DNA of 64,000 nucleotides, from contig CAWFSO010000004.1 of the NCBI GenBank assembly GCA_963818525.1, positions 49,624 through 113,623 on the forward strand, read 5' to 3'. The translations under genes were made by a program, and so were the position numbers. The DNA is from an uncultured Rikenellaceae bacterium (lineage in GTDB: Bacteria; Bacteroidota; Bacteroidia; Bacteroidales; VadinHA17). The stretch's first letter is position 1; each line of letters opens with the position of its first letter. The notes beneath the pieces are model-generated. The model saw only the letters and a program-made list of their open reading frames with translations. It had not been told where the DNA came from and ran no database searches. Shown here piece by piece: positions 15 through 59,001 of the stretch.

Positions 15-1070
15 ATGGAAAATGTGCCGGCCAGGAGGCCAGGAAAGAGACCCGTAAGACCGGGTACCGACAAGGCTGAAGGAGGAAGAGAGAGATCGGT
101 CAGACCGGGTGCCGGCAAGGCTGAAGGGGGAAGAGAGAGATCATCCAGGCCGGGTGCCGGCAAGGCTGAAGGAGGAAGAGAGAGATCAGCCAGGCCCACC
201 ACCGAAAGGGCTGCAGATGAAAGAAAGAGATCCGCGAGGCCCGGTGCCAGACCCGGAACCAGGCCCCCCGCCGGAGCAGGTAAGAGATCGGTCAGACCGG
301 CTGCCGGAGCAGGTAAGAGATCAGCCAGACCGGCCGCAATACCAGCTGCAGCGGAGCTGATCAGGCTGAACAAATACATTGCAAACAGCGGCGTCTGCGC
401 CCGCCGTGAAGCCGATGAACTCATAAAGAACGGATATATCGCCGTCAACGGTAAAAAGGTCACCGACATGGGTGTCAAGGTAAAACCCACTGACACAGTT
501 GAATACAAAGGCAAAGCACTGACCCCGGGAAAGAAGGTCTATATCCTGCTCAACAAGCCCAAGGGGTACGTGACCACCGTAAAGGATCCGCATGCCGATC
601 TGACCGTACTTGACCTGGTGAAGGATGCCACCACTGAGAGAATATATCCCGTCGGAAGGCTTGACAAGTCAACCACCGGCGTACTGCTTCTCACAAACGA
701 CGGTGACCTGGCAGGGAAACTGACACACCCCAGTTTCGGTGCGAAGAAAATATACCACGTCTTCACTGACAAGGACATTACCAGGCATGATATGGAGGCA
801 ATAGTCAGCGGCGTAACCCTCGATGACGGGAAGGTAAGTGCCGACGCCATCTCCTACCCTGACGCCGAAGACCACACGCAGGTGGGACTCGAGTTGCACT
901 CCGGACAGAACAGGGTTGTCAGACGCATCTTCGAGAAGCTGGGATACCGGGTCAGGAAGCTTGACCGCGTCAGCTTCGCCGGCCTGACGAAGAAGAACCT
1001 TCAGCGCGGCCACTGGAGGCATCTGACCGATAAGGAGGTAAGCATGCTTAAGAGAGGTATCTACAAATAG
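15..1070 (+). CDS. RluB/RsuA-family pseudouridine synthase with a repetitive Arg/Lys-rich N-terminal extension
   Basis: 351-aa ORF. It has an S4 RNA-binding motif (LIRLNKYIANSGVCARREADELIKNGYIAVNGK) followed by the catalytic-Asp motif GRLDKSTTGVLLLTNDG. The first ~110 aa are RPGAGKAEGGRERS-type repeats. Confidence 0.85.
   Translation: MENVPARRPGKRPVRPGTDKAEGGRERSVRPGAGKAEGGRERSSRPGAGKAEGGRERSARPTTERAADERKRSARPGARPGTRPPAGAGKRSVRPAAGAGKRSARPAAIPAAAELIRLNKYIANSGVCARREADELIKNGYIAVNGKKVTDMGVKVKPTDTVEYKGKALTPGKKVYILLNKPKGYVTTVKDPHADLTVLDLVKDATTERIYPVGRLDKSTTGVLLLTNDGDLAGKLTHPSFGAKKIYHVFTDKDITRHDMEAIVSGVTLDDGKVSADAISYPDAEDHTQVGLELHSGQNRVVRRIFEKLGYRVRKLDRVSFAGLTKKNLQRGHWRHLTDKEVSMLKRGIYK
57..338 (+). 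repeat. In-frame coding tandem repeat (about 45 bp / 15 aa units, then shorter AGAGKRS(V/A)RPAA units)
   Basis: The DNA unit ccgggtgccggcaaggctgaagg.ggaagagagagatc is repeated head to tail. The translated units are RPGTDKAEGGRERSV / RPGAGKAEGGRERSS / RPGAGKAEGGRERSA / RPTTERAADERKRSA. Confidence 0.85.
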
Positions 1071-22565: not shown

Positions 22566-24524
22566 CTAGATCTCCTTCTTTAATATGATGACCTCTGCCT
22601 GTTTGCGAATGATTTCAGAATAGAATTTCCTGATTGAGGCGTACCTATCGGGAAGGTAGGTGACGGTGGAGAAGCTGATCTCCGACTCAAGCGTGACCTT
22701 TCGGCCGTCAGCGCTGATGTTGTAGATGAACCCGGCTCCTCCCCCATCCATTCGCAAATTTACCGACTGAGGAAGTTCTGCTACGGTCCATCCCTCGGGA
22801 ATGGTTATGGTGCATCTGTATTTCTCCGTTGAGGGGCATGTCAGGTCAATCACCGAAATACGCTCTTCGGCGTAAAATTCATTCGATTCCTTGCGGCCAT
22901 ACAGGACAGGATTCAGGTACATGAAACCGTCGCCATTGTCTGTGGCCCCCGGGATGGCAAGGCTGATCCTCTCAATGACCGGTTCCTCCGGCTTTTCGAG
23001 GTTTTCAAGCTCAAGACCTGAAATTTTCCAGTCTGAATAGACTGACTGCATAAAATCGCGGTAAGCCTCGGTTCCCTGGAGGGAACAGGTCTTCCTCACC
23101 ATCCATGCGTAATAGCTCTCATAGACGTTGGTTGCCTTTCCGGTCAGGCCGCCCTTTTCATCCAGCTCCATTTCGAGGGAGACTGTTTCGCCGTAATGCT
23201 CACCATTGTTCAGGTCTACCCATGACCCTCCCAGTTCGTCAACCAGCCATCCCTGTCCGTTGAGGCACTCCTCCGGCAGCATGTTGAACGGCCTCAGAGG
23301 GTCGGTAGCGTCGATGACATATACTTTCCCCTCTGCCGTTGCTGCAACAGCCACATGATTGAACTTCCTGATGATCGCGAAGAAGGGGTTAACCAGGCCA
23401 TGTTCGCGCGTACTGAGTATCAGCGGATCCGCCTGTAACCCGGCCATCCTGAGCATTGCCAGGAGCATCAGGTTAATGTCTGCCGCATTACCCCGCGCGT
23501 CCTCATAAATTTTTGACATTGAGGCGGAAGCGGTGAAGTCGGAGTAACCGTTCCACATCATATAATCGGAAACCCAGGTAAAGATGCGTCTGAGAATATC
23601 TGTTTCAGATCCTCCCATTGACTTAAGCTCATCTGCCTTTTTCCTGACCACTGCAGCCTTATCAATGTAACCTCCGAAATCTGTCCGGGCCAGCAGCTTC
23701 TCCGAAAGTCTGGGGTAGGTAGGCGAGACCTCCTCGAAGTAGTAACCGGGGATATTGATCTTTGAGAGTTCGAACCCGATCCTCGCGTAAAAGTCCTCCG
23801 AGCCGGTGCTGAACGGCTCCTCACGGTAAGCCGGTATGTTGTTTCCTCTCCATGTCCCAGAGAATCCTTCAACACTGCTGTCTCCGAACAGAACCCTTCG
23901 CTGCCCGCTGTTGTACCTGATGCCGAAGAGATTTCCGCCGGGCACGAATTTGTACTCGAAATAGCCGGGGAACTCGACCTGGAAATTGCATCTCCTGACG
24001 GGGATGTCATGCTGGAACTCCAGGGTATAGAGGGTAAAGTAGTCAGGGCTCTCCAGGGTGTACCTGTATTCAATCACCGTGCCGGGCCTGACATTTGGGA
24101 CCGAGAAACGCAGTGTGCTCGTGTAACGGCTCGTATTTTCATAATAGAGACTCTTTTTGTCGACCAGGCTCTGCACGGTAACCCCATCTTCCAGGTTATA
24201 GGCCGCAGCCCTCATCCCTATGATCTTCTCATCACTGCCATAGGGCAGCTCGACATTGGCGTAATCGAGCCCGTCGGTATTGATGATCTTGATCCTCACA
24301 TGGCAATCGGTAACGACGGTGATCTTCTCGGCGGATCGCATACTTACCATGGCATGGTTTTCCAGGATCACGGCATCAGCCGACGGATCGGGTTCATACA
24401 CTGCCATTTCAAGATCCTCCTTCGGGATCTCGCCGAAGGTGATCTCTTTGATCTGGCCGGCTAGTGATGTGCTGAAGGCCAGGGAGACCAGGCTCAAGGT
24501 TATCAGTCGAAAAGAATTGTGCAT
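22566..24524 (-). CDS. DUF3857 / transglutaminase-like protein (catalytic Cys apparently replaced)
   Basis: 652 aa with a signal peptide. The equivalent core reads ARGNAADINLMLLAMLRMAGL...FNHVAVA, with Ala in place of Cys. It lies 5 nt from the downstream paralog. Confidence 0.7.
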   Translation of the reverse strand: MHNSFRLITLSLVSLAFSTSLAGQIKEITFGEIPKEDLEMAVYEPDPSADAVILENHAMVSMRSAEKITVVTDCHVRIKIINTDGLDYANVELPYGSDEKIIGMRAAAYNLEDGVTVQSLVDKKSLYYENTSRYTSTLRFSVPNVRPGTVIEYRYTLESPDYFTLYTLEFQHDIPVRRCNFQVEFPGYFEYKFVPGGNLFGIRYNSGQRRVLFGDSSVEGFSGTWRGNNIPAYREEPFSTGSEDFYARIGFELSKINIPGYYFEEVSPTYPRLSEKLLARTDFGGYIDKAAVVRKKADELKSMGGSETDILRRIFTWVSDYMMWNGYSDFTASASMSKIYEDARGNAADINLMLLAMLRMAGLQADPLILSTREHGLVNPFFAIIRKFNHVAVAATAEGKVYVIDATDPLRPFNMLPEECLNGQGWLVDELGGSWVDLNNGEHYGETVSLEMELDEKGGLTGKATNVYESYYAWMVRKTCSLQGTEAYRDFMQSVYSDWKISGLELENLEKPEEPVIERISLAIPGATDNGDGFMYLNPVLYGRKESNEFYAEERISVIDLTCPSTEKYRCTITIPEGWTVAELPQSVNLRMDGGGAGFIYNISADGRKVTLESEISFSTVTYLPDRYASIRKFYSEIIRKQAEVIILKKEI

Positions 24525-24609
24525 CGCTTTGATAAGGTTAACAGTCGAAAAAGATTATGCATCGCTTTGATAAGGTTAACAGTCGAAAAAGATTATGCAT
24601 CGCTTTGAT
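24504..24609. repeat. 38-bp tandem repeat (about 2.8 copies) that duplicates the start codon and first codons of the 22566..24524 gene
   Basis: The copies are at 24504-24541, 24542-24579 and 24580-24609. Copies B and C both read cagtcgaaaaagattatgcatcgctttgat; the full 38-bp unit continues aaggttaa, whereas copy C diverges after tttgat. Copy A differs at a few positions and holds the annotated ATG (24524). Confidence 0.9.
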
Positions 24610-31940: not shown

Positions 31941-32125
31941 TTCTTAAGGTGGGCGAGGCTCAGCTGTTTTGTCATCTCAGGCTTAGCTCAATCGGTCTTC
32001 AGGCCGGGCGTGGCTATATAATTTCATCTGGTGAGCCGGCGGGTTCTGTTATTTCAGAAGTGGCGCGGCTCAGCTGTTATTCAGGCCTGACGTGGCTATG
32101 TTATTTCTTCAGGTGGGCGAGGCTC
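31941..32125. repeat. Degenerate ~26-30-bp tandem repeats derived from, and running into, the 3' end of valS
   Basis: The valS terminal sequence ttcttcaggtgggcgaggctc (32104-) recurs as ttcttaaggtgggcgaggctcagctgtt (31941-) and ttcagaagtggcgcggctcagctgtt (32052-). These copies are interleaved with ttcaggccgggcgtggctat (31998-) and tcaggcctgacgtggctat (32080-). Confidence 0.75.
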
Positions 32126-34728
32126 TCCCTAAGCGTCGCTATCTTAGACCGTGCATCCGCCTCCTTCTTCCTCTCAAGCGTCAGGACCTTCTCCGGCGCA
32201 TTGGCGACGAACTTTTCGTTCGAGAGCTTCTGCATTACCGATGCGAGGAACCCCTCCGTGTAGGCCAGCTCCTCCTCCAGCTTCCTGATCTCATCCTCAT
32301 GGTCGATCCCGGCTGTCAGCGGCACGAAGAATTCAGAGGTGTGTATCCTGAATGAGGCCGCACCTTCAACTTTGCCTTCCACAATGCGTATCTCCGAGAG
32401 GTTGCACAGCCTGGTGATGACCTGGTCAAACTCCGTCCCGGTGGTGCCGGCGACGGCACAAAGTACCAGCGGCTCACGTACCGGAATATTTCTCTCCTTG
32501 CGTATTGCGCGCACTGCGGTAACTATCTCCTTCGCCGTCTCAAAGCGTGTCAGCATACCTGCCTCATAGGGTGCGGGAAGGGGCATCTGCTCAACCATGA
32601 TGCTCTCCCCCTCTTTCCTTTCACCCAGCCTCTGCCATATCTCCTCGGTGATAAAAGGCATGAACGGATGGATGATCTTCATCAGCGTCTCAAAGATCTC
32701 AAGTGTCTGTTTGTGAGTCTTGCCATCCATCGGCTCTTTGTAAGCTGGCTTAATAATCTCCAGGAACCATCCCGAGAAGTCATCCCAGAAGAGCTTGTAG
32801 GCCTGCATCAGCGCGTCGGAGATGCGGTAACGCACAAAGCTGTCATCGATATCCGCCAGCGTCTTGCTGATGGTGTCCTGCATCCAGTGCACCGCAGCCT
32901 TTGATGCCTCAGGCTGCTCAAGGGTCTCATCGGTGGGCATGGTTATCACGAGACGGAACGCGTTCCAGATCTTGTTGGCGAAGTTGCGGCCCTGCTCCGG
33001 CAGGCTGTCATCGTAAAGAAGATCATTGCCTGCAGGCGAACAGAGAAGCATGCCTACCCTCACGCCGTCAGCCCCGTACTTCTCCATGAGAGTGATTGGG
33101 TCAGGCGAGTTGCCGAGCGATTTCGACATCTTGCGCTTCTGCTTGTCACGCACGAGGCCGGTGAGGTATACATCATGGAATGGCTCCCTCCCGCGGTACT
33201 CATACCCTGCAATTATCATCCTGGCAACCCAGAAGAAGAGTATCTCCGGGGCGGTGACAAGGACATTCGATGGATAGTAATATTTTATGTCAGCATTGTC
33301 GGGGTCATTGATGCCGTTGAAGCATGTGATTGGCCAGAGCCATGATGAGAACCATGTGTCAAGGACATCTTCATCCTGCCTCAGGTCTTTCAGGGTAAGG
33401 TCCTGCCTGCCGCTGGCCTTGCGTGCCATGTCGAGAGCCTCCTCTTCGCTTTCGGCAACCACGAATTCATTGTTACTGTAATAATATGCCGGGATGCGCT
33501 GACCCCACCACAGCTGCCTGCTGATGCACCAGTCGCGGACATTCTCCATCCAGTGCCTGTAGACATTCCTGTACTTGTCGGGATAGAGACTCACGGTGTC
33601 ATCCATGACCGCCTCAAGGGCAGGCCTGGATAAATCCTTCATGCTCAGGAACCACTGCAGCGACAGCTTGGGTTCAATCACTGCATGGGTACGTTCCGAG
33701 CGCCCTACCTTATTTATATAATCCTCAACCCTGACGAGGGCTCCGGTTTTGCGGAGCTCCTCCTCCGCAAGCTTCCGGGCTTCGAACCGGTCAGTGCCGA
33801 CGAACAGTCCGGCCCTCTCGCTGATGGTTCCGTTATCATTGAAGATATCAATGGCTTCGAGGTTATACTTCACCCCTATCTCATAGTCGTTGATGTCATG
33901 CGCGGGAGTGATCTTCAGGCATCCCGTACCGAACTCCTTGTCGACATACTCGTCGAAGATGAATGGGACCTCACGCCCCGTCATCGGGACGATGACATGT
34001 TTTCCCTTCAGGCCGGCATAGCGCTCATCAGTCGGATTGGCGCAGACGGCCGTGTCGCCGAGGATGGTCTCAGGCCTGGTGGTGGCCACCATTACATAAT
34101 TATCCTCGCCCACTATTTTATAGCGCACGTAATAGAGCTTCGACTGCTCCTCGGTGTATATAACCTCCTCATCCGAGACGGCGGTCAGAGCCTGCGGATC
34201 CCAGTTGACCATGCGCACGCCTCTGTATATAAGGCCCTTTTTATACAGGTCGATGAAAACCCTGATCACTGATTTATACCGGTCGTCATCCATGGTGAAG
34301 AGGGTGCGGTCCCAGTCGCACGATGCCCCCAGGCGCTTGAGCTGCTCGAGGATGATGCCTCCGTGCTTGTGCGTCCACTCCCATGCATGGTCAATGAATT
34401 CCTCCCTCGATATTGACTTCTTGTCAATGCCTTCGCTGCGCAGCTTGGCAACAACCTTGGCCTCGGTGGCGATGCTTGCATGATCGGTGCCCGGCACCCA
34501 GCAGGCATTGAAACCCAGCATGCGTGCACGCCTGACAAGCACATCCTGGGTGGTGTTGTTCAGCATGTGACCCATGTGCAGCACCCCCGTCACATTTGGC
34601 GGCGGGATGATAATGGTATAAGGCGTTCTGCCGTCAGGGACACTGCGGAAAAAACCCTTATCCATCCAGTATTTGTACCATTTGTTCTCCGCGGCGGCGG
34701 GCTCATATTTTGAAGGAAGACCGGTCAT
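32101..34728 (-). CDS. valS: Valine--tRNA ligase
   Basis: 875 aa. It has the HIGH-type motif [18 protein letters not shown], an editing domain and a C-terminal coiled coil. Confidence 0.95.
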
Positions 34729-34731
34729 TGA

Positions 34732-34876
34732 ATTTGCGATTTGCGATTTGCGATTTGCGATTGGGGGATGTGGTGAGATTTGCGATTTGCGATTTGCGAT
34801 GGGGATGTGGTGAGATTTGCGATTGGTGGTTGTGATAAGATTTGCGACTGTCGATTTGCGATTTGCGATTGCGATT
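34732..34876. repeat. Heptamer microsatellite array (ATTTGCG)n with higher-order structure, abutting the valS start codon
   Basis: Four perfect ATTTGCG copies lie at 34732-34759. Then come GGGGGATGTGGTGAG, three copies, GGGGATGTGGTGAG and further interrupted copies. The array begins 3 nt from the valS ATG (34728). Confidence 0.9.
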
Positions 34877-35069
34877 AACAGTGATGCGTTAATTTATAAT
34901 TTACTGTGATATTTTATTGATAATAAATATATTACAAGCTCTCTTTGATTTATCGATTTATAAACCGGTATTTCAATATGTAAGGGGCAAAATTAACAAT
35001 TTGTTGCCATTATGGAAAAAGGAGAGTGAGCTTATGCCTAAAATCATGGTTCATTAAGGTGAATTTGAA

Positions 35070-35077
35070 TACATTTG
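35070..35077 (+). promoter_or_regulatory. Candidate Bacteroidota -7 promoter box (TAnnTTTG) for the aminotransferase gene
   Basis: TACATTTG lies 37 nt upstream of the ATG at 35114, in an AT-rich intergenic region. Confidence 0.35.
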
Positions 35078-35113
35078 CGCTTCATTTTGCAAATGGATTA
35101 AAGAGTATAAGTC

Positions 35114-36313
35114 ATGCCAAAGATCTCAGAAAAAGCCGGGAAAATGCCGGCATCGCCGATACGCAAACTCGTTCCCTATGCCGAGGAGGCAAAGCGTAAG
35201 GGCAGAAAGGTATACCACCTGAATATCGGGCAGCCTGATATCCACACTCCCGAACTGGCACTCAAGGCACTCAGGGAAACGGATATCAAGGTGATTGAAT
35301 ATACTCACTCCGCCGGGAATGAATCATACCGCCGCAAGCTGGCAGAGAGCTACCGGAAAATCGGCGTCGATGTTGACCACACTGAGATCATCGTCACAAC
35401 CGGTGGGTCCGAGGCAGTGCTGTTTGCATTCATGTCATGCCTCGATCCGGGTGAAGAGGTGATCACCTTCGAACCATTTTACGCCAACTATAACGGCTTT
35501 GCCACCTCTGCCGGAGTAACCATCGTACCGGTGAGGTCATTTATCGAAAATGACTTCGCACTGCCTCCCATCAGTGAGATCGAAAAGAAGATCACACCGA
35601 AGACAAAAGCCATCCTTATCTGCAACCCCAACAACCCGACAGGCTCACTCTATTCGAAGGAGGAGCTGATGCAGCTTCGAGACATAGTGAAGAAGTATGA
35701 CCTGTTCCTATTCTCTGACGAAGTGTACAGGGAGTTTTGCTACGGCGCAGACCATTTCTCAGCCATGGAGCTTGAGGGGATAAGGGAGAATGTGGTGCTA
35801 CTCGACTCTGTGTCAAAACGATACAGCATGTGCGGGGTGCGCATCGGCGCCCTGATCACCCACAACAGGGAGGTGCTGGCGGCCGCTCTAAAGTTCGGCC
35901 AGGCAAGGCTATGCCCTCCGGAGCTTGGACAGATAGTTGCCGAAGCGGCTCTTGACACGCCCAAAGAGTATTTTGATGCTGTCTACAATGAGTATATAGC
36001 CCGCCGCGACTTCATGGTCGAGGCTCTTAACAATATGCCGGGCGTCTATTGCCCGATGCCCCGCGGTGCTTTCTATACGGTGGTGAAGCTGCCGATAGAC
36101 GACTCCGACAGGTTCGCGCAGTGGCTGCTTGAGGACTTCAGTTACAACAACCAGACGGTGATGGTGGCGCCCGCAACGGGGTTCTATTTCACTCCCGGCG
36201 CCGGCAAGAACGAGGTGCGTGTTGCCTATGTGCTGAAGATCGATGACCTCCGCAAGGCGATGGAAACCCTGGCCGAGGCGCTGAAGGTCTACCCGGGAAG
36301 AATTATGAATTAA
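35114..36313 (+). CDS. PLP-dependent class I/II aminotransferase (aspartate/aromatic aminotransferase-like)
   Basis: 399 aa. It has the PLP-lysine motif SVSKRYSMCGVRIG, plus NPNNPTGSLYS and DEVYREF blocks. Confidence 0.88.
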   Translation: MPKISEKAGKMPASPIRKLVPYAEEAKRKGRKVYHLNIGQPDIHTPELALKALRETDIKVIEYTHSAGNESYRRKLAESYRKIGVDVDHTEIIVTTGGSEAVLFAFMSCLDPGEEVITFEPFYANYNGFATSAGVTIVPVRSFIENDFALPPISEIEKKITPKTKAILICNPNNPTGSLYSKEELMQLRDIVKKYDLFLFSDEVYREFCYGADHFSAMELEGIRENVVLLDSVSKRYSMCGVRIGALITHNREVLAAALKFGQARLCPPELGQIVAEAALDTPKEYFDAVYNEYIARRDFMVEALNNMPGVYCPMPRGAFYTVVKLPIDDSDRFAQWLLEDFSYNNQTVMVAPATGFYFTPGAGKNEVRVAYVLKIDDLRKAMETLAEALKVYPGRIMN

Positions 36314-36330
36314 AAATTAAGAATTAAGAG

Positions 36331-36699
36331 TTATTGGCTAGGGTCAGGATGAAGTTTCTGAGTCATTGTCTTTTTTATTGACCCTGTTATCTTTAACAAC
36401 TCTTCAAGATCTGTCATAAGTTCTTCTGCCTCAGGTTTTTCTATAAGATCAGAATCCCTCAGTAGCTTGAGCCAGAATATAGTTTCACGGCATTCTTTAT
36501 ATGATATGCTGATTTTTGACAGAAAATCTCGCTCTGATTGACCTCCGACAGCCTCTTCAATATTAGCGGCGATAGATGTACCGCTTCTCAGGATCTGACG
36601 TGACAATTCAAATTCGTTCTGATTTTTAAGTGAAAGGTACAATCTTACAATTTTCAAAGCCAGGGCATAACTCTTCTCTATTGCAATATTTTCCTTCAT
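36331..36699 (-). CDS. Four-helix-bundle protein (23S rRNA intervening-sequence protein family)
   Basis: 122 aa. Family-typical sequence is YALALKIVRLYLSLK...LSRQILRSGTSIAANIEEAVGGQSERDFLSKISISYKECRETIFWLKLL. The gene is visibly more AT-rich than its neighbours. Confidence 0.8.
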   Translation of the reverse strand: MKENIAIEKSYALALKIVRLYLSLKNQNEFELSRQILRSGTSIAANIEEAVGGQSERDFLSKISISYKECRETIFWLKLLRDSDLIEKPEAEELMTDLEELLKITGSIKKTMTQKLHPDPSQ

Positions 36700-36741
36700 A
36701 ACCCCCTCATTACAAATTTCTTAATTCTTAATTATTAACTC

Positions 36742-37917
36742 TTAATTATATATAAGGTACTTCGCGCGGATGATCTTGAATTGATCAAGCCCCTCCTTCC
36801 ACGTGGCTTTGATCTCTTCCGCCGTCATACCCTGGATTATCTGCTCACGCAATGTGCTGCTGCCTGCCAGGGTGTCAAAATATCCGTTGAAGAAACTCTC
36901 TTTCTCAGGATAGGCATTGTAGGCATCAATGATCCATCCGAGGTTCATCTCCGGCTTCGGAACGATGCCGTCAGTCAGCGCGTTCCGCAGGTCGGTGCCA
37001 TAACACACCACCCCGTTATGCTTCGGGTTCGATGCACCGAAAGTGGGTTGCGGCGTGAAGCTGAAGCCTGTGTCGGGCATCTTCGGCGCCCCCAGCACCT
37101 GGAACGGAAACTCCGTACCCCTGCCGCACGAGAGCACTGTCCCTTCGGCAAAACATAAAGAAGGATAGAGATAGATCGAATTCATGTTGGGGAGGTTGGG
37201 CGACGGTATGACCGGCAGCTCATACATCGTTGCATGAGTATAGTTTTCGCATTGAATAACCTTAAGATCGCACTTCACACCCTTTGCCAGCCACCCCTCT
37301 CCGTTGACCATCCCGGCATATTCGCCCAGCGTCATCCCATGCACCACGGGGATAGGGTGTATCCCCACAAAGGAACTGTATCCGGCGGTGTCAAGGATGG
37401 GTCCGTCAACATAGAAACCATTGGGATTGGGACGGTCGAGGACGATGAACTGCTTGCCGTTCTCGGCACAGGCCTCCATGACGTAACACATTGTGGTCAG
37501 ATAGGTGTAGAACCTTGTCCCAACATCCTGGATGTCAAAGATGACGACATCGATTCCTTCAAGGTCTTCAGCCGCCGGTTTCTTCTTGTTTCCATAGAGA
37601 CTCATAACATTGATGCCCGTGACGGGATCGGTACCTGAGGTTATTTCCGCACCGGCATCGGCCAGGTCCCTGAAGCCGTGCTCAGGAGCGAAGATCAGTT
37701 TTATGTTTGCACCCAGCGAGAGCAGGGTGTCAATCAGATGGGCACCGCCAACCATTGAGGTCTGGTTGGCCACCACGGCAACCGTTTTGCCTCCAATCAG
37801 CGGGAGGTACTCGCTGATTCGCTCAGCGCCGGTCGTGAGCCTGTTGTCATTTTTGTCAGCTGAACATGCCGTGCCGGCCGTCACCAGAAGAAAGGTCAGT
37901 ATGAAAAGGTTCTTCAT
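36742..37917 (-). CDS. DUF1343-family protein (exo-beta-N-acetylmuramidase NamZ-like)
   Basis: The ORF is trimmed to the MKNLFILTFLLVTAGTACS signal peptide. Family-like blocks are VAVVANQTSMVGGAHLIDTL, IFAPEHGFRD, VIFDIQDVGTRFYTY and VLDRPNPNG. Confidence 0.7.
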   Translation of the reverse strand: MKNLFILTFLLVTAGTACSADKNDNRLTTGAERISEYLPLIGGKTVAVVANQTSMVGGAHLIDTLLSLGANIKLIFAPEHGFRDLADAGAEITSGTDPVTGINVMSLYGNKKKPAAEDLEGIDVVIFDIQDVGTRFYTYLTTMCYVMEACAENGKQFIVLDRPNPNGFYVDGPILDTAGYSSFVGIHPIPVVHGMTLGEYAGMVNGEGWLAKGVKCDLKVIQCENYTHATMYELPVIPSPNLPNMNSIYLYPSLCFAEGTVLSCGRGTEFPFQVLGAPKMPDTGFSFTPQPTFGASNPKHNGVVCYGTDLRNALTDGIVPKPEMNLGWIIDAYNAYPEKESFFNGYFDTLAGSSTLREQIIQGMTAEEIKATWKEGLDQFKIIRAKYLIYN

Positions 37918-38084
37918 AATATCTTCGTTTTCGGTAAAGTTAAAAAAGCCGCGCAGAATGACCAAAGAATCCGTAAAGTCGGCTAAAAACTGTTAAAGAC
38001 TCGTTCAAATACCAGTCGATGACGATAGGAGTCGTCCGGCTATCATGCAGTCAGGAATACAGACCGGCTACTTCACTGCCAGTA

Positions 38085-38150
38085 ATTCATTCAATTCGCA
38101 ATTCATAATTGCAATCGCAAATCGCAAATCTTAAATCGAAATTCCTAATT
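38085..38150. repeat. Degenerate heptamer array (AATCGCA-type) immediately upstream of the lolE-like gene
   Basis: The sequence reads aattcgc aattcat aattgca atcgcaa atcgcaa atcttaa atcgaaa ttcctaa. It has the same orientation relative to its downstream gene as the valS array. Confidence 0.8.
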
Positions 38151-38158
38151 TTGCCCTG

Positions 38159-39403
38159 ATGTCCACCGGATCCTTCATAGCCCGCCGCCTGATAAAGGAA
38201 CGCACTCATGGAACAGCCTTCTCACGCCCGATAAACGTGATAGCCATCATCGGCATCGCGCTCGGTCTGGCGGTGATGATCCTCGCCGTCTCCATACTGA
38301 CAGGCTTCAAGCAGCAGATACGCGATAAGGTGGCAGGCTTCGGGGCACACATCCAGGTTGTGAACTTCGATGCGAACATCTCATACGAGACAGTGCCCGT
38401 CAGTGCCTCCCAGTCGTTCGTTGAAAAGATAAGAAACCACCCGGGAATTAAAAACATCCAGGTCTTCGCCACCAAGGCAGGCATCATCAAGACCGATGAC
38501 AACATCCAGGGGGTGGTGCTCAAGGGCATTGGCAGCGATTACGACTGGAGTTTCTTCGAATCGAACATGGTGGAAGGTGAGGTGGTGACGGTATCCGATA
38601 CCGCCAGGACTGACAACGTCATCATCTCCAGCAAGGTGGCTGACATGCTCGGACTGAAGCTTGGCGACTCCTTCTCGATGTTCTTCGTACAGGATCCGCC
38701 CCGAATGCGTAAGTTTACCATCCGTGGGATCTATGAGACCAGTCTCGAGGAGTTCGACAAAACCTACCTCTTCTGCGACATAGCCCACATAAGGAGTCTG
38801 AACGGATGGGAAGACGACCAGGTCAGCGGGTTTGAGGTCTCCGTGAACGACTTCGACGACCTTGATGTCATGACCGACGTCGTGCGCGACGCCATTGGCT
38901 ACAGGGTGGCCGAGGAGGAGGAACAGCTCAAGGTCACAAACATCAGGAACAGATACCCCCAGATATTCGACTGGCTGGGGTTCCAGGACACCAACGTGAT
39001 CATCATCCTTATTCTCATGATACTGGTCGCAGGGTTCAACATGATATCGGGACTGCTTATCCTGATCCTCGAAAAGACCAACATGATCGGTGTCCTGAAA
39101 GCCATGGGCGCAGGCAACAAAGTCATCCGAAACATTTTTCTTTACCAGGCGGCATGGCTTACCGCCAAGGGGCTACTCTGGGGTAATATCATCGGGTTGG
39201 GACTGGCGATGCTGCAGCTGAAGACCGAATTGATTTCTCTCGACCCCTCCTCATACTACCTGAAAAGCGTTCCGATCAATCTTGACCCGCTCCATATCAT
39301 CCTCCTGAACGTCGGAACGATGCTAGCCATCATTCTTATGCTCCTTATACCATCTCAGCTCATTGCCCGTATCACACCCGTCAAGGCCATCCGATACAAC
39401 TGA
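38159..39403 (+). CDS. FtsX/LolE-family ABC transporter permease
   Basis: 414 aa. It has an N-terminal TM helix, a MacB-like periplasmic domain and a C-terminal FtsX domain of three TM helices (ILMILVAGFNMISGLLILILEKTNMIGVLKAMGA). Confidence 0.85.
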   Translation: MSTGSFIARRLIKERTHGTAFSRPINVIAIIGIALGLAVMILAVSILTGFKQQIRDKVAGFGAHIQVVNFDANISYETVPVSASQSFVEKIRNHPGIKNIQVFATKAGIIKTDDNIQGVVLKGIGSDYDWSFFESNMVEGEVVTVSDTARTDNVIISSKVADMLGLKLGDSFSMFFVQDPPRMRKFTIRGIYETSLEEFDKTYLFCDIAHIRSLNGWEDDQVSGFEVSVNDFDDLDVMTDVVRDAIGYRVAEEEEQLKVTNIRNRYPQIFDWLGFQDTNVIIILILMILVAGFNMISGLLILILEKTNMIGVLKAMGAGNKVIRNIFLYQAAWLTAKGLLWGNIIGLGLAMLQLKTELISLDPSSYYLKSVPINLDPLHIILLNVGTMLAIILMLLIPSQLIARITPVKAIRYN

Positions 39404-43059: not shown

Positions 43060-43100
43060 CCAGAAAATCTCTGTGATGAGAGAGGCATAAAGGTCTGAAG

Positions 43101-43175
43101 GATTTGCGATTTGCGATTTGCGATTTGCGAATTTTGATTAAATCGACAATCGAAAATCCGAAATCGAAAATTCCT
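43101..43175. repeat. Heptamer array with inverted halves between the convergent genes gatD and mltF
   Basis: (GATTTGC)x4 is followed by gaattttgattaaa and then tcgacaa tcgaaaa tccgaaa tcgaaaa. The second half approximates the reverse complement of the first, so an imperfect long hairpin is possible. Confidence 0.85.
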
Positions 43176-52125: not shown

Positions 52126-53210
52126 CAATTACCTCGTCAGAATTTTTTATTGCCAGTCTCCTTATGTTGTCAGAAAGTTGATTTCGCTTTGCGTCGTCAT
52201 GCACCAGTGTCAGGGCCGTATTGATGAGCGCTGTCTGTGCATCGGAGTCTCTTACCAGTATGGCGGCGCCACGGTTGACGAGGGCCATGGCATTGTGCGT
52301 CTGGTGGTCCTCAGCCACGTTGGGTGACGGCACGAGGATGACCGGCTTGCCGACCAGTGCCAGCTCGGAGATGGTACCGGCGCCGGCACGGGAGATGATG
52401 ACATCGGCGGCGGCATAGGCCAGGTCCATACGGTTTATGAAGCCTGTGACAACAGTGTTGGTCACAGCCTTCTCTTCAGCCAGCTCGCGCATCCGGTCAT
52501 AATAGTGACTGCCGGTCTGCCATATCATCTGCACACCGGATGCCTCCACCTGGCCTATGCCGCCACCGACACTGTTGTTGACCGTGCCGGCGCCGAGCGA
52601 CCCGCCCAGAACAAGTATCACCGGCATGCCTGGCTTCAGCCTGAAGTGCTCCATCGCCTCCGCCCTGAGCGCATCCAGGTTGTCATAGGCCTGCCTGACA
52701 GGATTGCCCGTCAGTATTATTTTTTCCTTCGGGAAATATTTTTCCATCCCCTCATAGGCCACGCATATCTTTTCCGCCTTCTTCGCCAGCAGCCTGTTGG
52801 TCACACCGGCATAGCTGTTCTGCTCCTGTATCAGGGTGGGTATGCGCTTCCGCTGCGCCTGCTTCAGCACCGGGCCTGAGACATATCCACCGACGCCCAC
52901 AACAACATCAGGACCGAACCTCCTGATTATCTGTGCCGACTTCATTATGCTGCGGAAGAGCTTCCATGCCACATGGAATGTTTTTGACACTGACACCGCG
53001 TACCAGTCCTGCCACCGACAGCCCCTCTATCTCGTAGCCGGCCTCGGGCACCTTCTGCATCTCCATCTTCCCGATGGCGCCGACAAACAGGATTTTCACC
53101 GCCGGCTCAATGCGCCGCAGGGCGTTGGCAATGGCAATGGCCGGGAAGAGATGCCCGCCGGTGCCGCCTCCGCTGATGATGATCCTTATATCTTTACCCT
53201 CCGCGCTCAT
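52094..53210 (-). pseudogene. murG: UDP-N-acetylglucosamine--LPS/undecaprenyl transferase MurG, interrupted by a 1-nt frameshift as assembled
   Basis: The N-terminal ORF (53210..52908) carries [17 protein letters not shown]. The C-terminal ORF (52996..52094) carries [16 protein letters not shown]...GGSLGA...SRAGAGTISE. The frames switch at an A5 run (T5 on the plus strand, 52981-52985). Confidence 0.85.
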
Positions 53211-53363
53211 GTTAATCTTGTATCTTTCTCTCGCTGCTTATGCTAATCCTTGTGTCTTTCTGTCGCCGTTAATGCTGATACTCCTGTCTTTTCCTTCACC
53301 GCTCATTCTTTTCCTTGTATACTGTCCCGCGCCCCTCATGCCGGTATCTTGTCTGTCTGTTCA
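53203..53363. repeat. ftsW/murG spacer made of five degenerate ~30-36-bp tandem copies of the ftsW-stop/murG-start junction
   Basis: Units start at 53203, 53233, 53265, 53301 and 53329. They read cgcgctcatgttaatcttgtatctttctct / cgctgcttatgctaatccttgtgtctttctgt / cgccgttaatgctgatactcctgtcttttcc... / cgctcattcttttccttgtatactgtcc / cgcgcccctcatgccggtatcttgtctgtctgt. Confidence 0.8.
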
Positions 53364-57362: not shown

Positions 57363-58820
57363 TCAACTTATATTAAATGCTTTACGTAACTCCTCCCTGT
57401 CATCGAAGTGGTGCCTGACACCCTTCACCTCCTGGTATGTCTCATGACCTTTGCCCGCGACGATTATTATGTCACCCGGCGTGGCCAGCATCACGGCAGC
57501 CCTGATGGCATCAGCGCGACCGGTTATGCGTATCATCTTCGGCATGGCGTCAGGGGTTAGTCCCGCTTCCATGTCGTCAATGATTTTGTCAGGATCCTCG
57601 CTGCGGGGATTGTCTGATGTCAGGATAAGCCTGTCGGCTCCGGCCGAGGCGATGCGCGCCATGACGGGCCTCTTGGTGCGGTCACGGTCGCCGCCGGCGC
57701 CCACAACCACTATCAGCCTGCCTGCTCCCTGCCTCAGCCTGTTAACTGCTTCGATCACATTCTCGACGGCGTCGGGTGTATGTGCATAGTCTACGATGCC
57801 GGTGATGCCGTCTGCCGAGCGTATCACCTCCATGCGGCCGTCAACGGGACGGAGCTTGCTGAGTATAGTCAGAACCTCTTCGCTCTGCGCGCCAAGAAGG
57901 ATTGCCGAACCGTATACCGCAAGAAGGTTTGATGCGTTGTAGTCGCCAATGAAGTGAGTCCACACCTCTGTGCCGTTGATTTTGAGCAGCATCCCCTCAA
58001 ATCCCTGCTCGATGATGTTGCACCGGAAGTCGGCCATTTTGCGCATTGAGAAAGTGTGCTTTGCCGCCCTGGTGTTCTGTGTCATCACCATGCCGTTCCG
58101 GTCGTCTGTGTTGACCAGGACAAAAGCTTCTTTCGGGAGGTCGTCGAAGAACTTCTTCTTTGCGGCGAGATAATTGTCAAAGGTCAGGTGGTAGTCGAGA
58201 TGATCATGGGTCAGGTTGGTGAAAACACCTCCCGCGAACTGCAGTCCGGCAATACGTTTCTGGTCAACGGCATGCGAGCTCACCTCCATGAATGCATATT
58301 CGCATCCTGCATCGACCATTTCCGCCAGGAGGGCATTCAGTTTGGCGGGGTCGGGAGTGGTATGCGTTGCATCCCTGCGCTCGAGATGCACATAGTTGCA
58401 GACCGTCGAGAGCAGTCCGCACTTGTATCCCAGCGCCTCGAACATATTATAAAGTAATGTTGCGATGGTGGTCTTGCCGTTGGTGCCCGTGACTCCCGTC
58501 AGCCTTAGCTTTCTTGAAGGGTGATCGTAGAATGCCGAGGCTGCCATTCCTGTTGCCGCTGCCGAGTCGTCGACTACTATCATGGTGACTCCTTCGAAGA
58601 GTTTTTCGGGAAGCGCTTCGCAGATGACTGCTGTTGCCCCTGACTCAACTGCTTTGCCGATGAAGGCGTGACCGTCGCTCTTCGTTCCCCTGACAGCTAC
58701 AAAGAGGCTGCCCGGCTTTACGTCACGGGAGTCGGCTGTTACACCGGTGATGAGCTTGTCTTCATCGCCGTAGATGGACGTCACCCTCAGTTCCTTCAGT
58801 ATATTCTTAAGCTCCTTCAT
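57363..58820 (-). CDS. murE: UDP-N-acetylmuramoyl-L-alanyl-D-glutamate--2,6-diaminopimelate ligase
   Basis: 485-486 aa with [14 protein letters not shown] and the DNPRSEDP motif. I prefer the ATG at 58820 over the GTG at 58823 used in the ORF track. Confidence 0.92.
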
Positions 58821-59001
58821 CACTTTTTCTCAGGTCAGACACTGATCACACTCTGTTTTTTCTTGCTTTATTCATCACTTTTTCTCAGGTCAAAGACTTT
58901 GCACAAACAGTTTCTTCCTTGCTTTATTCATCACTCTTATCATGCTGCCTTGTGCCTCCATTGCTTTTTTCATCTCCTCTTTCATGCTCCCCGGTTCTCC
59001 A
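58816..59001. repeat. ftsI/murE spacer: 55-56-bp tandem repeat (2+ copies) of the murE start region, followed by shorter degenerate ATG-containing pieces
   Basis: U1 (58816-58870) reads ttcatcactttttctcaggtcagacactgatcacactctgttttttcttgctttat. U2 (58871-58926) reads ttcatcactttttctcaggtcaaagactttgcacaaacagtttcttccttgcttta. U3 begins ttcatcactcttatcatgc at 58927. Confidence 0.85.

Follow-up and report, generated by a model that had tools for sequence, protein, structure and literature searches.

The window analyzed here is a stretch of 64,000 nt of DNA from an uncultured member of the Bacteroidia, and all positions are numbered within it. It was assigned to a Bacteroidia metagenome-assembled genome by its nearest ValS homologues, which are labeled, for example, 'Bacteroidales bacterium', and by a 'Marinilabiliales bacterium' entry in the 100%-identity cluster. 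The valine--tRNA ligase gene valS and a divergent aminotransferase gene flank an intergenic region in which a heptanucleotide array extends almost to the valS start codon, and two further arrays of the same family lie elsewhere in the window. The features are listed below in order of position.

32101..34728, minus strand: valS, valine--tRNA ligase of 875 aa (NCBIfam NF004349, 1077.8 bits; homologues)
34726..34728, minus strand: valS start codon ATG, 3 nt from the array
34732..34876, minus strand: heptanucleotide array, (ATTTGCG)n on the plus strand and (AAUCGCA)n in valS sense (TRF, direct reading, enrichment)
34763..34777, minus strand: spacer copy 1, GGGGGATGTGGTGAG (CTCACCACATCCCCC in valS sense; direct reading)
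34801..34814, minus strand: spacer copy 2, GGGGATGTGGTGAG (direct reading)
34825..34839, minus strand: spacer copy 3, diverged, GGTGGTTGTGATAAG (matches the single spacer of relative L133)
34877..34987, minus strand: AT-rich rest of the predicted valS leader, partly common to L122 and partly to L133
34988..34995, minus strand: predicted valS -7 box TAATTTTG, 259 nt upstream of the ATG and kept in all orthologous loci
34996..35023, minus strand: conserved block upstream of the -7 box, TTTTTCCATAATGGCnACAAAATGT in valS sense (orthologous loci)
35070..35077, plus strand: predicted -7 box TACATTTG of the divergent aminotransferase gene, conserved in relatives
35114..36313, plus strand: divergent PLP-dependent aminotransferase gene (NF005744, 609 bits)
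38092..38146, plus strand: second ATTTGCG-family array, of CAATTCG, AATCGCA and AAATCGA units, upstream of an FtsX/LolE-like gene (ATG at 38159)
43099..43175, no strand assigned: third array, (GATTTGC)4, a loop and (AAATCGA-like)4, forming an imperfect hairpin between convergent genes

The valS ATG was found to be the first start codon after a stop and to align with the starts of homologues, and the trinucleotide TGA (34729-34731) is all that separates it from the array. The array thus touches the valS start with a gap of 3 nt, as the initial annotation had noted; the junction that it gave, (AATCGCA)n-TTC-ATG, was misread, and the valS strand actually reads ...CGCAAATTCA-ATG. In valS sense the array contains neither ATG, GTG or TTG nor a stop codon in any frame and is therefore non-coding, again as first proposed. 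In the databases, four ValS proteins (P0019, P0020, P0062 and P0099) carry false N-terminal extensions that consist of translated array and appear as NRKSQIA repeats.

By TRF analysis, a period-7 array with the consensus ATTTGCG and 20.4 copies was returned at exactly 34732-34876, coordinates identical to those assigned to the heptamer array on first inspection. Read on the plus strand from the valS start, the sequence is CAT-TGA-(ATTTGCG)4-ATT-GGGGGATGTGGTGAG-(ATTTGCG)3-AT-GGGGATGTGGTGAG-ATTTGCG-ATT-GGTGGTTGTGATAAG and continues 3' into the array end as ATTTGCG-ACTGTCG-(ATTTGCG)2-ATTGCG-ATT, with some 13 perfect or near-perfect ATTTGCG units plus variants and a higher-order repeat within an array of 148 nt. 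A duplicated super-unit had been suspected, and it is borne out by the nested periods detected by TRF (period 37 at 34738-34824, with 2.3 copies and 96% matches, and period 25) and by three related spacers. The two spacers of 14-15 nt that were originally described are both present, but a third, diverged copy at 34825-34839 had been overlooked. Tandem heptamers of this kind occur far above chance in the window: (ATTTGCG)2 with at most one mismatch was found 10 times, compared to 0.03 expected from shuffles, and seven arrays have a period of 7 nt while periods of 5, 6 and 8 to 12 nt are represented by 0-2 arrays each. With its 20.4 copies, the valS array is itself a tandem direct repeat of a 7-nt unit that exceeds chance. 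The idea that the 14-nt spacer represents a dispersed small element was also considered and rejected; the spacer has no above-chance extra copies in the window and none in 120 loci, and is thus local to the array.

The stretch from the -7 box to the ATG was compared at the orthologous loci of relatives, all of which are metagenome assemblies.

L129/L130 (ValS 86% identical): no repeat; 22 nt ending ...ATATCCC-ATG
L128 (ValS 80% identical): 2-3 units
L131 (ValS 84% identical): five decayed units
L122-127 (ValS 84% identical): ~5 units
L121 (ValS 85% identical): six perfect units
L001 (ValS 92% identical): 3 units
L118 (same species as L001): 14 units
L132 (same species as L001; JGI contig): scaffold gap (32 N, ~1420-1460) inside the array
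L133 (valS 94.4% nucleotide identity): ~78 nt, one spacer
Window (reference): 148 nt, three spacers

In several related species the repeat was found at the same site and in the same orientation, 3-7 nt from the ATG, and is thus held in place across a clade of species. Its length ranges from 0 to 148 nt across relatives with no preferred value, and changes quickly. Over 5045 bp of flanking sequence, L001 and L118 show 4 mismatches (99.9% identity) but have 3 and 14 units, respectively; a second pair, L133 and the window, differs by ~78 versus 148 nt at 94.4% valS nucleotide identity. The length heterogeneity that the initial annotation had proposed to look for was therefore detected between close relatives. 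The six contigs L122-127 have identical arrays but were chosen by an exact protein match that included translated array, so that their identity is uninformative about stability. The run of 32 N inside the L132 array shows that short-read assembly or scaffolding fails at the repeat. Since the array is absent from one relative and decayed in another, it appears to be dispensable for valS expression. The spacer is ancestral to the pair formed by the window and L133, and its presence once in L133 and three times in the window indicates that the super-unit was duplicated recently; the higher-order repeat of the window arose because a block of spacer plus heptamers was duplicated twice since the split from L133.

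The Bacteroidetes -7 promoter element is TAnnTTTG, and initiation of translation in Bacteroidia is mostly not Shine-Dalgarno-based. Matches to TAnnTTTG were ~9-fold denser in the intergenic sequence of the window, where 7 of 17 sites fall within the 7% that is intergenic. Two blocks were conserved between valS and the aminotransferase gene in every orthologous locus compared. One, TTTTTCCATAATGGCnACAAAATGTTAATTTTG in valS sense, contains TAATTTTG; the other, CAAATGTAT(T/C)(C/T)AAAT(T/C)C, reads in reverse complement as TACATTTG, found at 35070 on the aminotransferase strand. The array was always located between the TAATTTTG box and the ATG in the orthologous loci examined. In the remainder of the predicted leader (34877..34987), the promoter-proximal part, CCCTTACATATTGAAATACCGGT in valS sense, is common to L122 and the array-proximal part, TTATCAATAAAATAT...AAATTAACGCATCACTGTT, is common to L133. 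With a conserved -7 box upstream, the array is most likely transcribed within the 5'-UTR of valS rather than being part of its core promoter; the first reading had allowed for both, and the latter is unlikely. Judged by the position of the box and the putative transcription start next to it, the predicted leader would be ~255 nt here and ~15-22 nt in the array-free relative, and copy number would alter the length of the 5'-UTR and not the spacing of promoter elements.

A structured leader was also considered for this aminoacyl-tRNA ligase gene. Rfam returned no T-box, riboswitch or other relevant family over 33500-36500 at E <= 1, and a Twister-P5 match inside valS (E = 0.16, under the gathering score) was taken as chance. 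The 291-nt leader folded no better than shuffled sequence (z = 0.36), and the minimum free energy (MFE) of the array RNA was -3.4 kcal/mol; a T-box or similar leader was rejected on these grounds. The same intergenic region holds a 42-bp unit, ATGAACCATGATTTTCGGCATAAGGCCGCTCACTTTACAATG, that is single-copy in the window (~35016-35057) and tandemly repeated 2.8 times in L001 (2824-2940), as also in L118 and L132.

The two strands of the array differed markedly in predicted RNA structure. In valS sense the 148-nt array RNA, at the MFE given above, had an empty centroid (0) and z = +1.74, and 197 of 200 shuffles folded at least as well. By contrast, the antisense RNA was predicted to fold at -42 kcal/mol (z = -2.43) and carries one TTG per unit. 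Thus, (AAUCGCA)n as read from valS is predicted to be essentially unstructured, while the opposite strand would fold strongly.

Heptamer arrays were next surveyed beyond the locus. An exact scan for (ATTTGCG)3 with one genome per species gave at least 116 stretches in many phyla. In the 801 kb around the matches listed, at least 226 arrays had a period of 7 nt compared to at most 25 for each of the other periods from 4 to 12, and at least 68 other heptamer units were present. Neighboring genes were scored symmetrically, with ATTTGCG on the top strand, for an ATG opening or a stop codon closing an ORF of at least 100 codons within 30 nt. By this approach, starts were found on the left, which is the valS arrangement, at 19 loci and on the right at 4 (p = 0.003; 116 independent matches listed), and stops on the left at 32 loci and on the right at 13 (p = 0.007; 116 matches listed). 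Taken together, these counts reveal that genes tend to have CGCAAAT in sense before them and ATTTGCG in sense after them. The initial annotation had held that its regulatory idea would fail if there were neither length polymorphism nor positional bias genome-wide; length polymorphism is described above, and a bias relative to start codons is present among the matches listed, which are from other genomes. ATTTGCG does not stand out as a special unit conserved across phyla: on viral contigs (ATTTGCG)3 was found in 7 stretches and four composition-matched permutations in 2, 22, 8 and 21, and since control heptamers are about as common, the wide phyletic spread is no evidence of a conserved signal.

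ATTTGCG-family arrays were found at three loci in the 64-kb window and at least four in the relative UBA1458. The array at 38092-38146 has the same sense orientation as that of valS. The stretch 38092-38161 reads as a degenerate copy of a composite element, ending in AAATTCC and followed by TAATTTTG (38146-38153), which leaves only 5 nt to the start codon of the FtsX/LolE-like gene at 38159; this second TAATTTTG could be a -7 box for a leaderless or near-leaderless mRNA, or a coincidence. The third array (43099-43175) is a copy of the same dispersed composite element, which has the form ...GTAAAGTCTGAAGG-(ATTTGCG)3-4-AATTTTGATTAAATCGACAATCGAAAATCTGAAATCGAAAATTCC and retains the same order of variant units in Bacteroidales and Rikenellaceae metagenome-assembled genomes (MAGs). 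Copies are present at seven other loci (L005, L019, L027, L053, L055, L096 and L111), and in three of the eight aligned copies (window, L005 and L019) convergent genes end on either side at stops no more than ~60 nt away. With inverted arms, a loop and dispersed copies, and an imperfect hairpin of about -25 kcal/mol predicted on both strands for the copy in the window, the element may represent a REP/MITE-like or terminator-like family. The presence of similar arrays after stops and between convergent genes indicates that the repeat is not confined to regulated promoters.

Other repeats were noted in the window. A gene for a four-helix-bundle protein (23S_rRNA_IVP / TIGR02436; 36331..36699, minus strand) has inverted heptamer arrays on both sides, AAGAATT at 36298-36333 and TTCTTAA at 36716-36749, which include a perfect 12-nt inverted repeat (AATTAAGAGTTA / TAACTCTTAATT). 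Among the 116 (ATTTGCG)3 loci listed there are five such genes (L015, L024 twice, L049 and L063), all of which touch arrays; at this number, arrays were rejected as general markers of four-helix-bundle genes. Together with a NamZ-like exo-muramidase gene (36742..37965, minus strand), the four-helix-bundle gene occupies the stretch 36331-37965, with the aminotransferase gene on one side and the FtsX/LolE-like gene on the other. The latter two are directly adjacent in L001, L128 and L132, and L121 has NamZ and a ParE toxin pair at the equivalent position. The stretch 36331-37965 is thus a site of variable insertion with heptamer arrays at its borders. Longer units are repeated in tandem at three places that are intergenic according to the ORF map, 24496-24609 (38 bp, 3 copies), 53182-53341 (32 bp, 4.9 copies) and 58816-58935 (55 bp, 2.2 copies), and a tandem repeat with 45/33-bp units (60-334) lies inside an ORF (15..1070).

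The explanation that we favor, and consider probable, is that the array is a slippage-prone heptanucleotide simple sequence repeat (SSR) in the transcribed leader of valS, tolerated because it lies in a harmless orientation, and is not a device that switches the gene. The array would sit between a conserved Bacteroidetes-type promoter (-7 box TAATTTTG) and the start codon, and would grow and shrink by replication slippage or unequal recombination, in steps of 7 nt and in the larger registers of 25 and 37 nt, the latter giving rise to the triplicated super-unit of spacer plus heptamers. It may persist beside the ATG because (AAUCGCA)n RNA in valS orientation has little G, is predicted to lack structure and offers neither start nor stop codons in any frame, and is thus likely harmless; such a leader would fit the Shine-Dalgarno-independent initiation of Bacteroidia. 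In the opposite orientation, a highly structured RNA with TTG codons upstream of the start would presumably be filtered out by selection. Copy number would then change leader length, probably in a selectively neutral manner, with at most mild translational tuning of valS output. One observation counts against mere tolerance, namely that the repeat persists at the same site in species whose ValS is only 80-92% identical, and this could reflect selection for presence instead. A positive function, for example in the binding of ribosomal protein S1 or some other RNA-binding protein, would fit the orientation bias equally well.

Such a function would make the array a selected translational module, which we regard as doubtful: a factor such as S1, a cold-shock protein or some other RNA binder would land on or bind to single-stranded (AAUCGCA)n, and the array would thereby enhance or tune Shine-Dalgarno-independent initiation with copy number as a rheostat. 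The ending of the arrays 3-6 nt from the ATG in several species, their retention at one site across the lineages compared, the predicted absence of structure in the sense RNA, the 19 to 4 orientation bias among the matches listed, and the second start-proximal array in the same orientation (38092-38146) would all be accounted for by this idea. It is weakened by the intact valS of L129/L130, in which the array is absent, and of L131, in which it is decayed, and by the lack of a preferred length between 0 and 148 nt. Moreover, (ATTTGCG)n arrays adjoin stops (32 + 13 loci) more than starts (19 + 4) among the matches listed, and purifying selection against the structured orientation with its TTG codons may account for the bias. 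To our knowledge no binder of (AAUCGCA)n has been described, which also counts against a module of this type. In its favor there is published precedent, on TAACTGA repeats and on heptamers in Nostoc, with the status of a hypothesis (PMC4679880; bioRxiv 10.1101/2022.06.06.494920). In a broader form, which we find rather doubtful, (AAUCGCA)n-type arrays of Bacteroidia and other phyla would be positively selected, strand-specific leader modules, free of structure and of start codons, that spread as arms of composite elements and in which slippage provides an evolvable expression dial. If so, the presence of the array at valS across species and the 19:4 bias would reflect function and not tolerance.

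It is unlikely that the valS array is the remnant of a dispersed hairpin, i.e., one arm of a REP- or MITE-like element of the form (GATTTGC)n-loop-(AAATCGN)n-AATTCC that arrived by insertion. The recurrence of the 43099-43175 element in its seven other loci of several MAGs, the resemblance of 38092-38146 to a degenerate copy, and the ends of the valS arrays in AAATTCA, AAATCCC or AAATTCC, similar to the element terminus AAAATTCC, are in keeping with such an origin. The valS array, however, is a single arm, with the left arm and loop absent in every relative, and its occurrence at one site in many species, as absent, decayed or long, fits in-place expansion and decay.

Tolerance of a slippage-prone leader repeat also agrees better with the data than a contingency locus, in which hypermutable copy number would alter promoter geometry and produce phase-variable or graded transcription of valS, as in hmw1A/hmw2A of Haemophilus influenzae. 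The large differences in copy number observed between nearly identical strains speak for such a locus, and expression is modulated by a heptanucleotide SSR upstream of these genes (as related in the part of PMC2651432 that cites Dawid 1999) and by AGAT repeats in the 5'-UTR of Moraxella uspA2 (as cited in PMC4679880). We nonetheless consider it quite unlikely for valS. The repeat lies neither inside an ORF nor between promoter elements, insofar as the promoter is placed by conservation, and the spacing of these elements is left untouched downstream of the -7 box; valS is an essential housekeeping gene with no surface, host-interaction or restriction-modification function; the array is missing in relatives; and heptamer arrays are scattered over intergenic regions of all kinds. 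The classic phase- or rheostat-variation design put forward in the initial annotation is weakened by the position of the box, the nature of the gene and the array-free relatives, and regulation of valS by on/off switching is unlikely. That metagenome assembly produced the array length or the higher-order repeat is very unlikely: although all of the sequences are metagenome assemblies, in which tandem repeats are prone to mis-assembly, and the 32-N gap falls inside the L132 array, the array is present in at least seven independent assemblies from different projects, the L001/L118 deletion junction shares only ~10 nt, which would be too short for k-mer collapse, and the spacers carry point differences unexpected from assembler-made duplications.

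Start-adjacent heptamer repeats have been described previously in sulfur bacteria, cyanobacteria and a few Bacteroidetes. New here are a set of orthologous loci with 0 to ~20 units ahead of a single housekeeping gene, the strong strand asymmetry in predicted RNA structure, an orientation rule that extends across phyla among the matches listed, and, possibly, a connection with a composite hairpin element that is dispersed in Bacteroidales. With the same gene and promoter and leaders from 22 to ~255 nt, the valS loci form a natural series and a convenient test case for the influence of such arrays on Shine-Dalgarno-independent translation and for the speed at which they mutate. If the array is only tolerated, it is ordinary genome texture. 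For annotation, heptamer arrays are a cause of false N-terminal extensions and scaffold gaps.

The closest known system is formed by the TAACTGA repeats, which lie just upstream of start codons without a Shine-Dalgarno sequence, including those of essential genes, and for which a translational role has been proposed as a hypothesis only (PMC4679880). Like these, the arrays described here are intergenic tandem 7-nt direct repeats in one main 'forward' orientation, a few nucleotides from the start, often without a Shine-Dalgarno sequence and also upstream of essential genes; in both, sets are 'split' by related heptamers and strains differ in 7-nt increments. They differ in unit (AATCGCA) and host lineage, in copy number (~20 units here compared to 2-6 in BOGUAY) and in the higher-order repeat found here, and many arrays of the AATCGCA unit also follow stops or form inverted pairs.

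Heptamers are over-represented among long bacterial SSRs, for which polymerase slippage or a footprint of the replicative polymerase has been proposed (PMC4692102, citing Mrazek 2007). The predominance of period 7 in the 801 kb around the matches listed agrees with both. Long SSRs of period 7 include GGGAATC in Xanthomonas and GGGGA(T/C)T in Nostoc (Rehm 2015, PMC4692102), and in Nostoc heptamer repeats are found near start codons (bioRxiv 10.1101/2022.06.06.494920). The valS array resembles the Xanthomonas and Nostoc SSRs in being intergenic, in being flanked by the same genes in related species while varying extensively in length and sequence, and in the occurrence of some inverted pairs. 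By contrast, their units are G-rich and can form G-quadruplexes, whereas ATTTGCG is not rich in G and no structure is predicted for its sense RNA.

Short tandemly repeated repetitive (STRR) heptanucleotides of heterocystous cyanobacteria were reportedly described by Mazel in 1990. The STRR units are CCCCAGT, TTGGTCA and CAACAGT. Both STRR and the present arrays are dispersed tandem heptamers of non-coding DNA with several units per genome, but the units and the phylum differ; membership in the cyanobacterial STRR was rejected for a unit of ATTTGCG in a Bacteroidia host, and the relationship is one of analogy only. We know of no start-codon adjacency rule described for STRR. Three tandemly repetitive heptanucleotides are present in Calothrix PCC 7601 (PMC4692102).

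In pathogens, (TGAAAGA)n lies upstream of hmw1A/hmw2A in H. influenzae (Dawid 1999, as cited in PMC2651432) and AGAT repeats lie in the 5'-UTR of uspA2 in Moraxella (as cited in PMC4679880). As presented in these citing sources, they share with the valS array an SSR between promoter and start whose copy number varies among strains, but they control surface adhesins of host-adapted pathogens from ~70-100 bp upstream of the start and have measured effects on expression, whereas the array here abuts the ATG of a housekeeping tRNA ligase gene and is known from sequence. The valS array is non-coding and ends a few nucleotides 5' of a start codon in a consistent orientation, its copy number differs between close relatives, and its unit recurs at several loci amid an over-representation of period 7. 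Thus, it belongs to the intergenic, start-adjacent heptanucleotide SSRs of the LSSR / TAACTGA type and is analogous to STRR.
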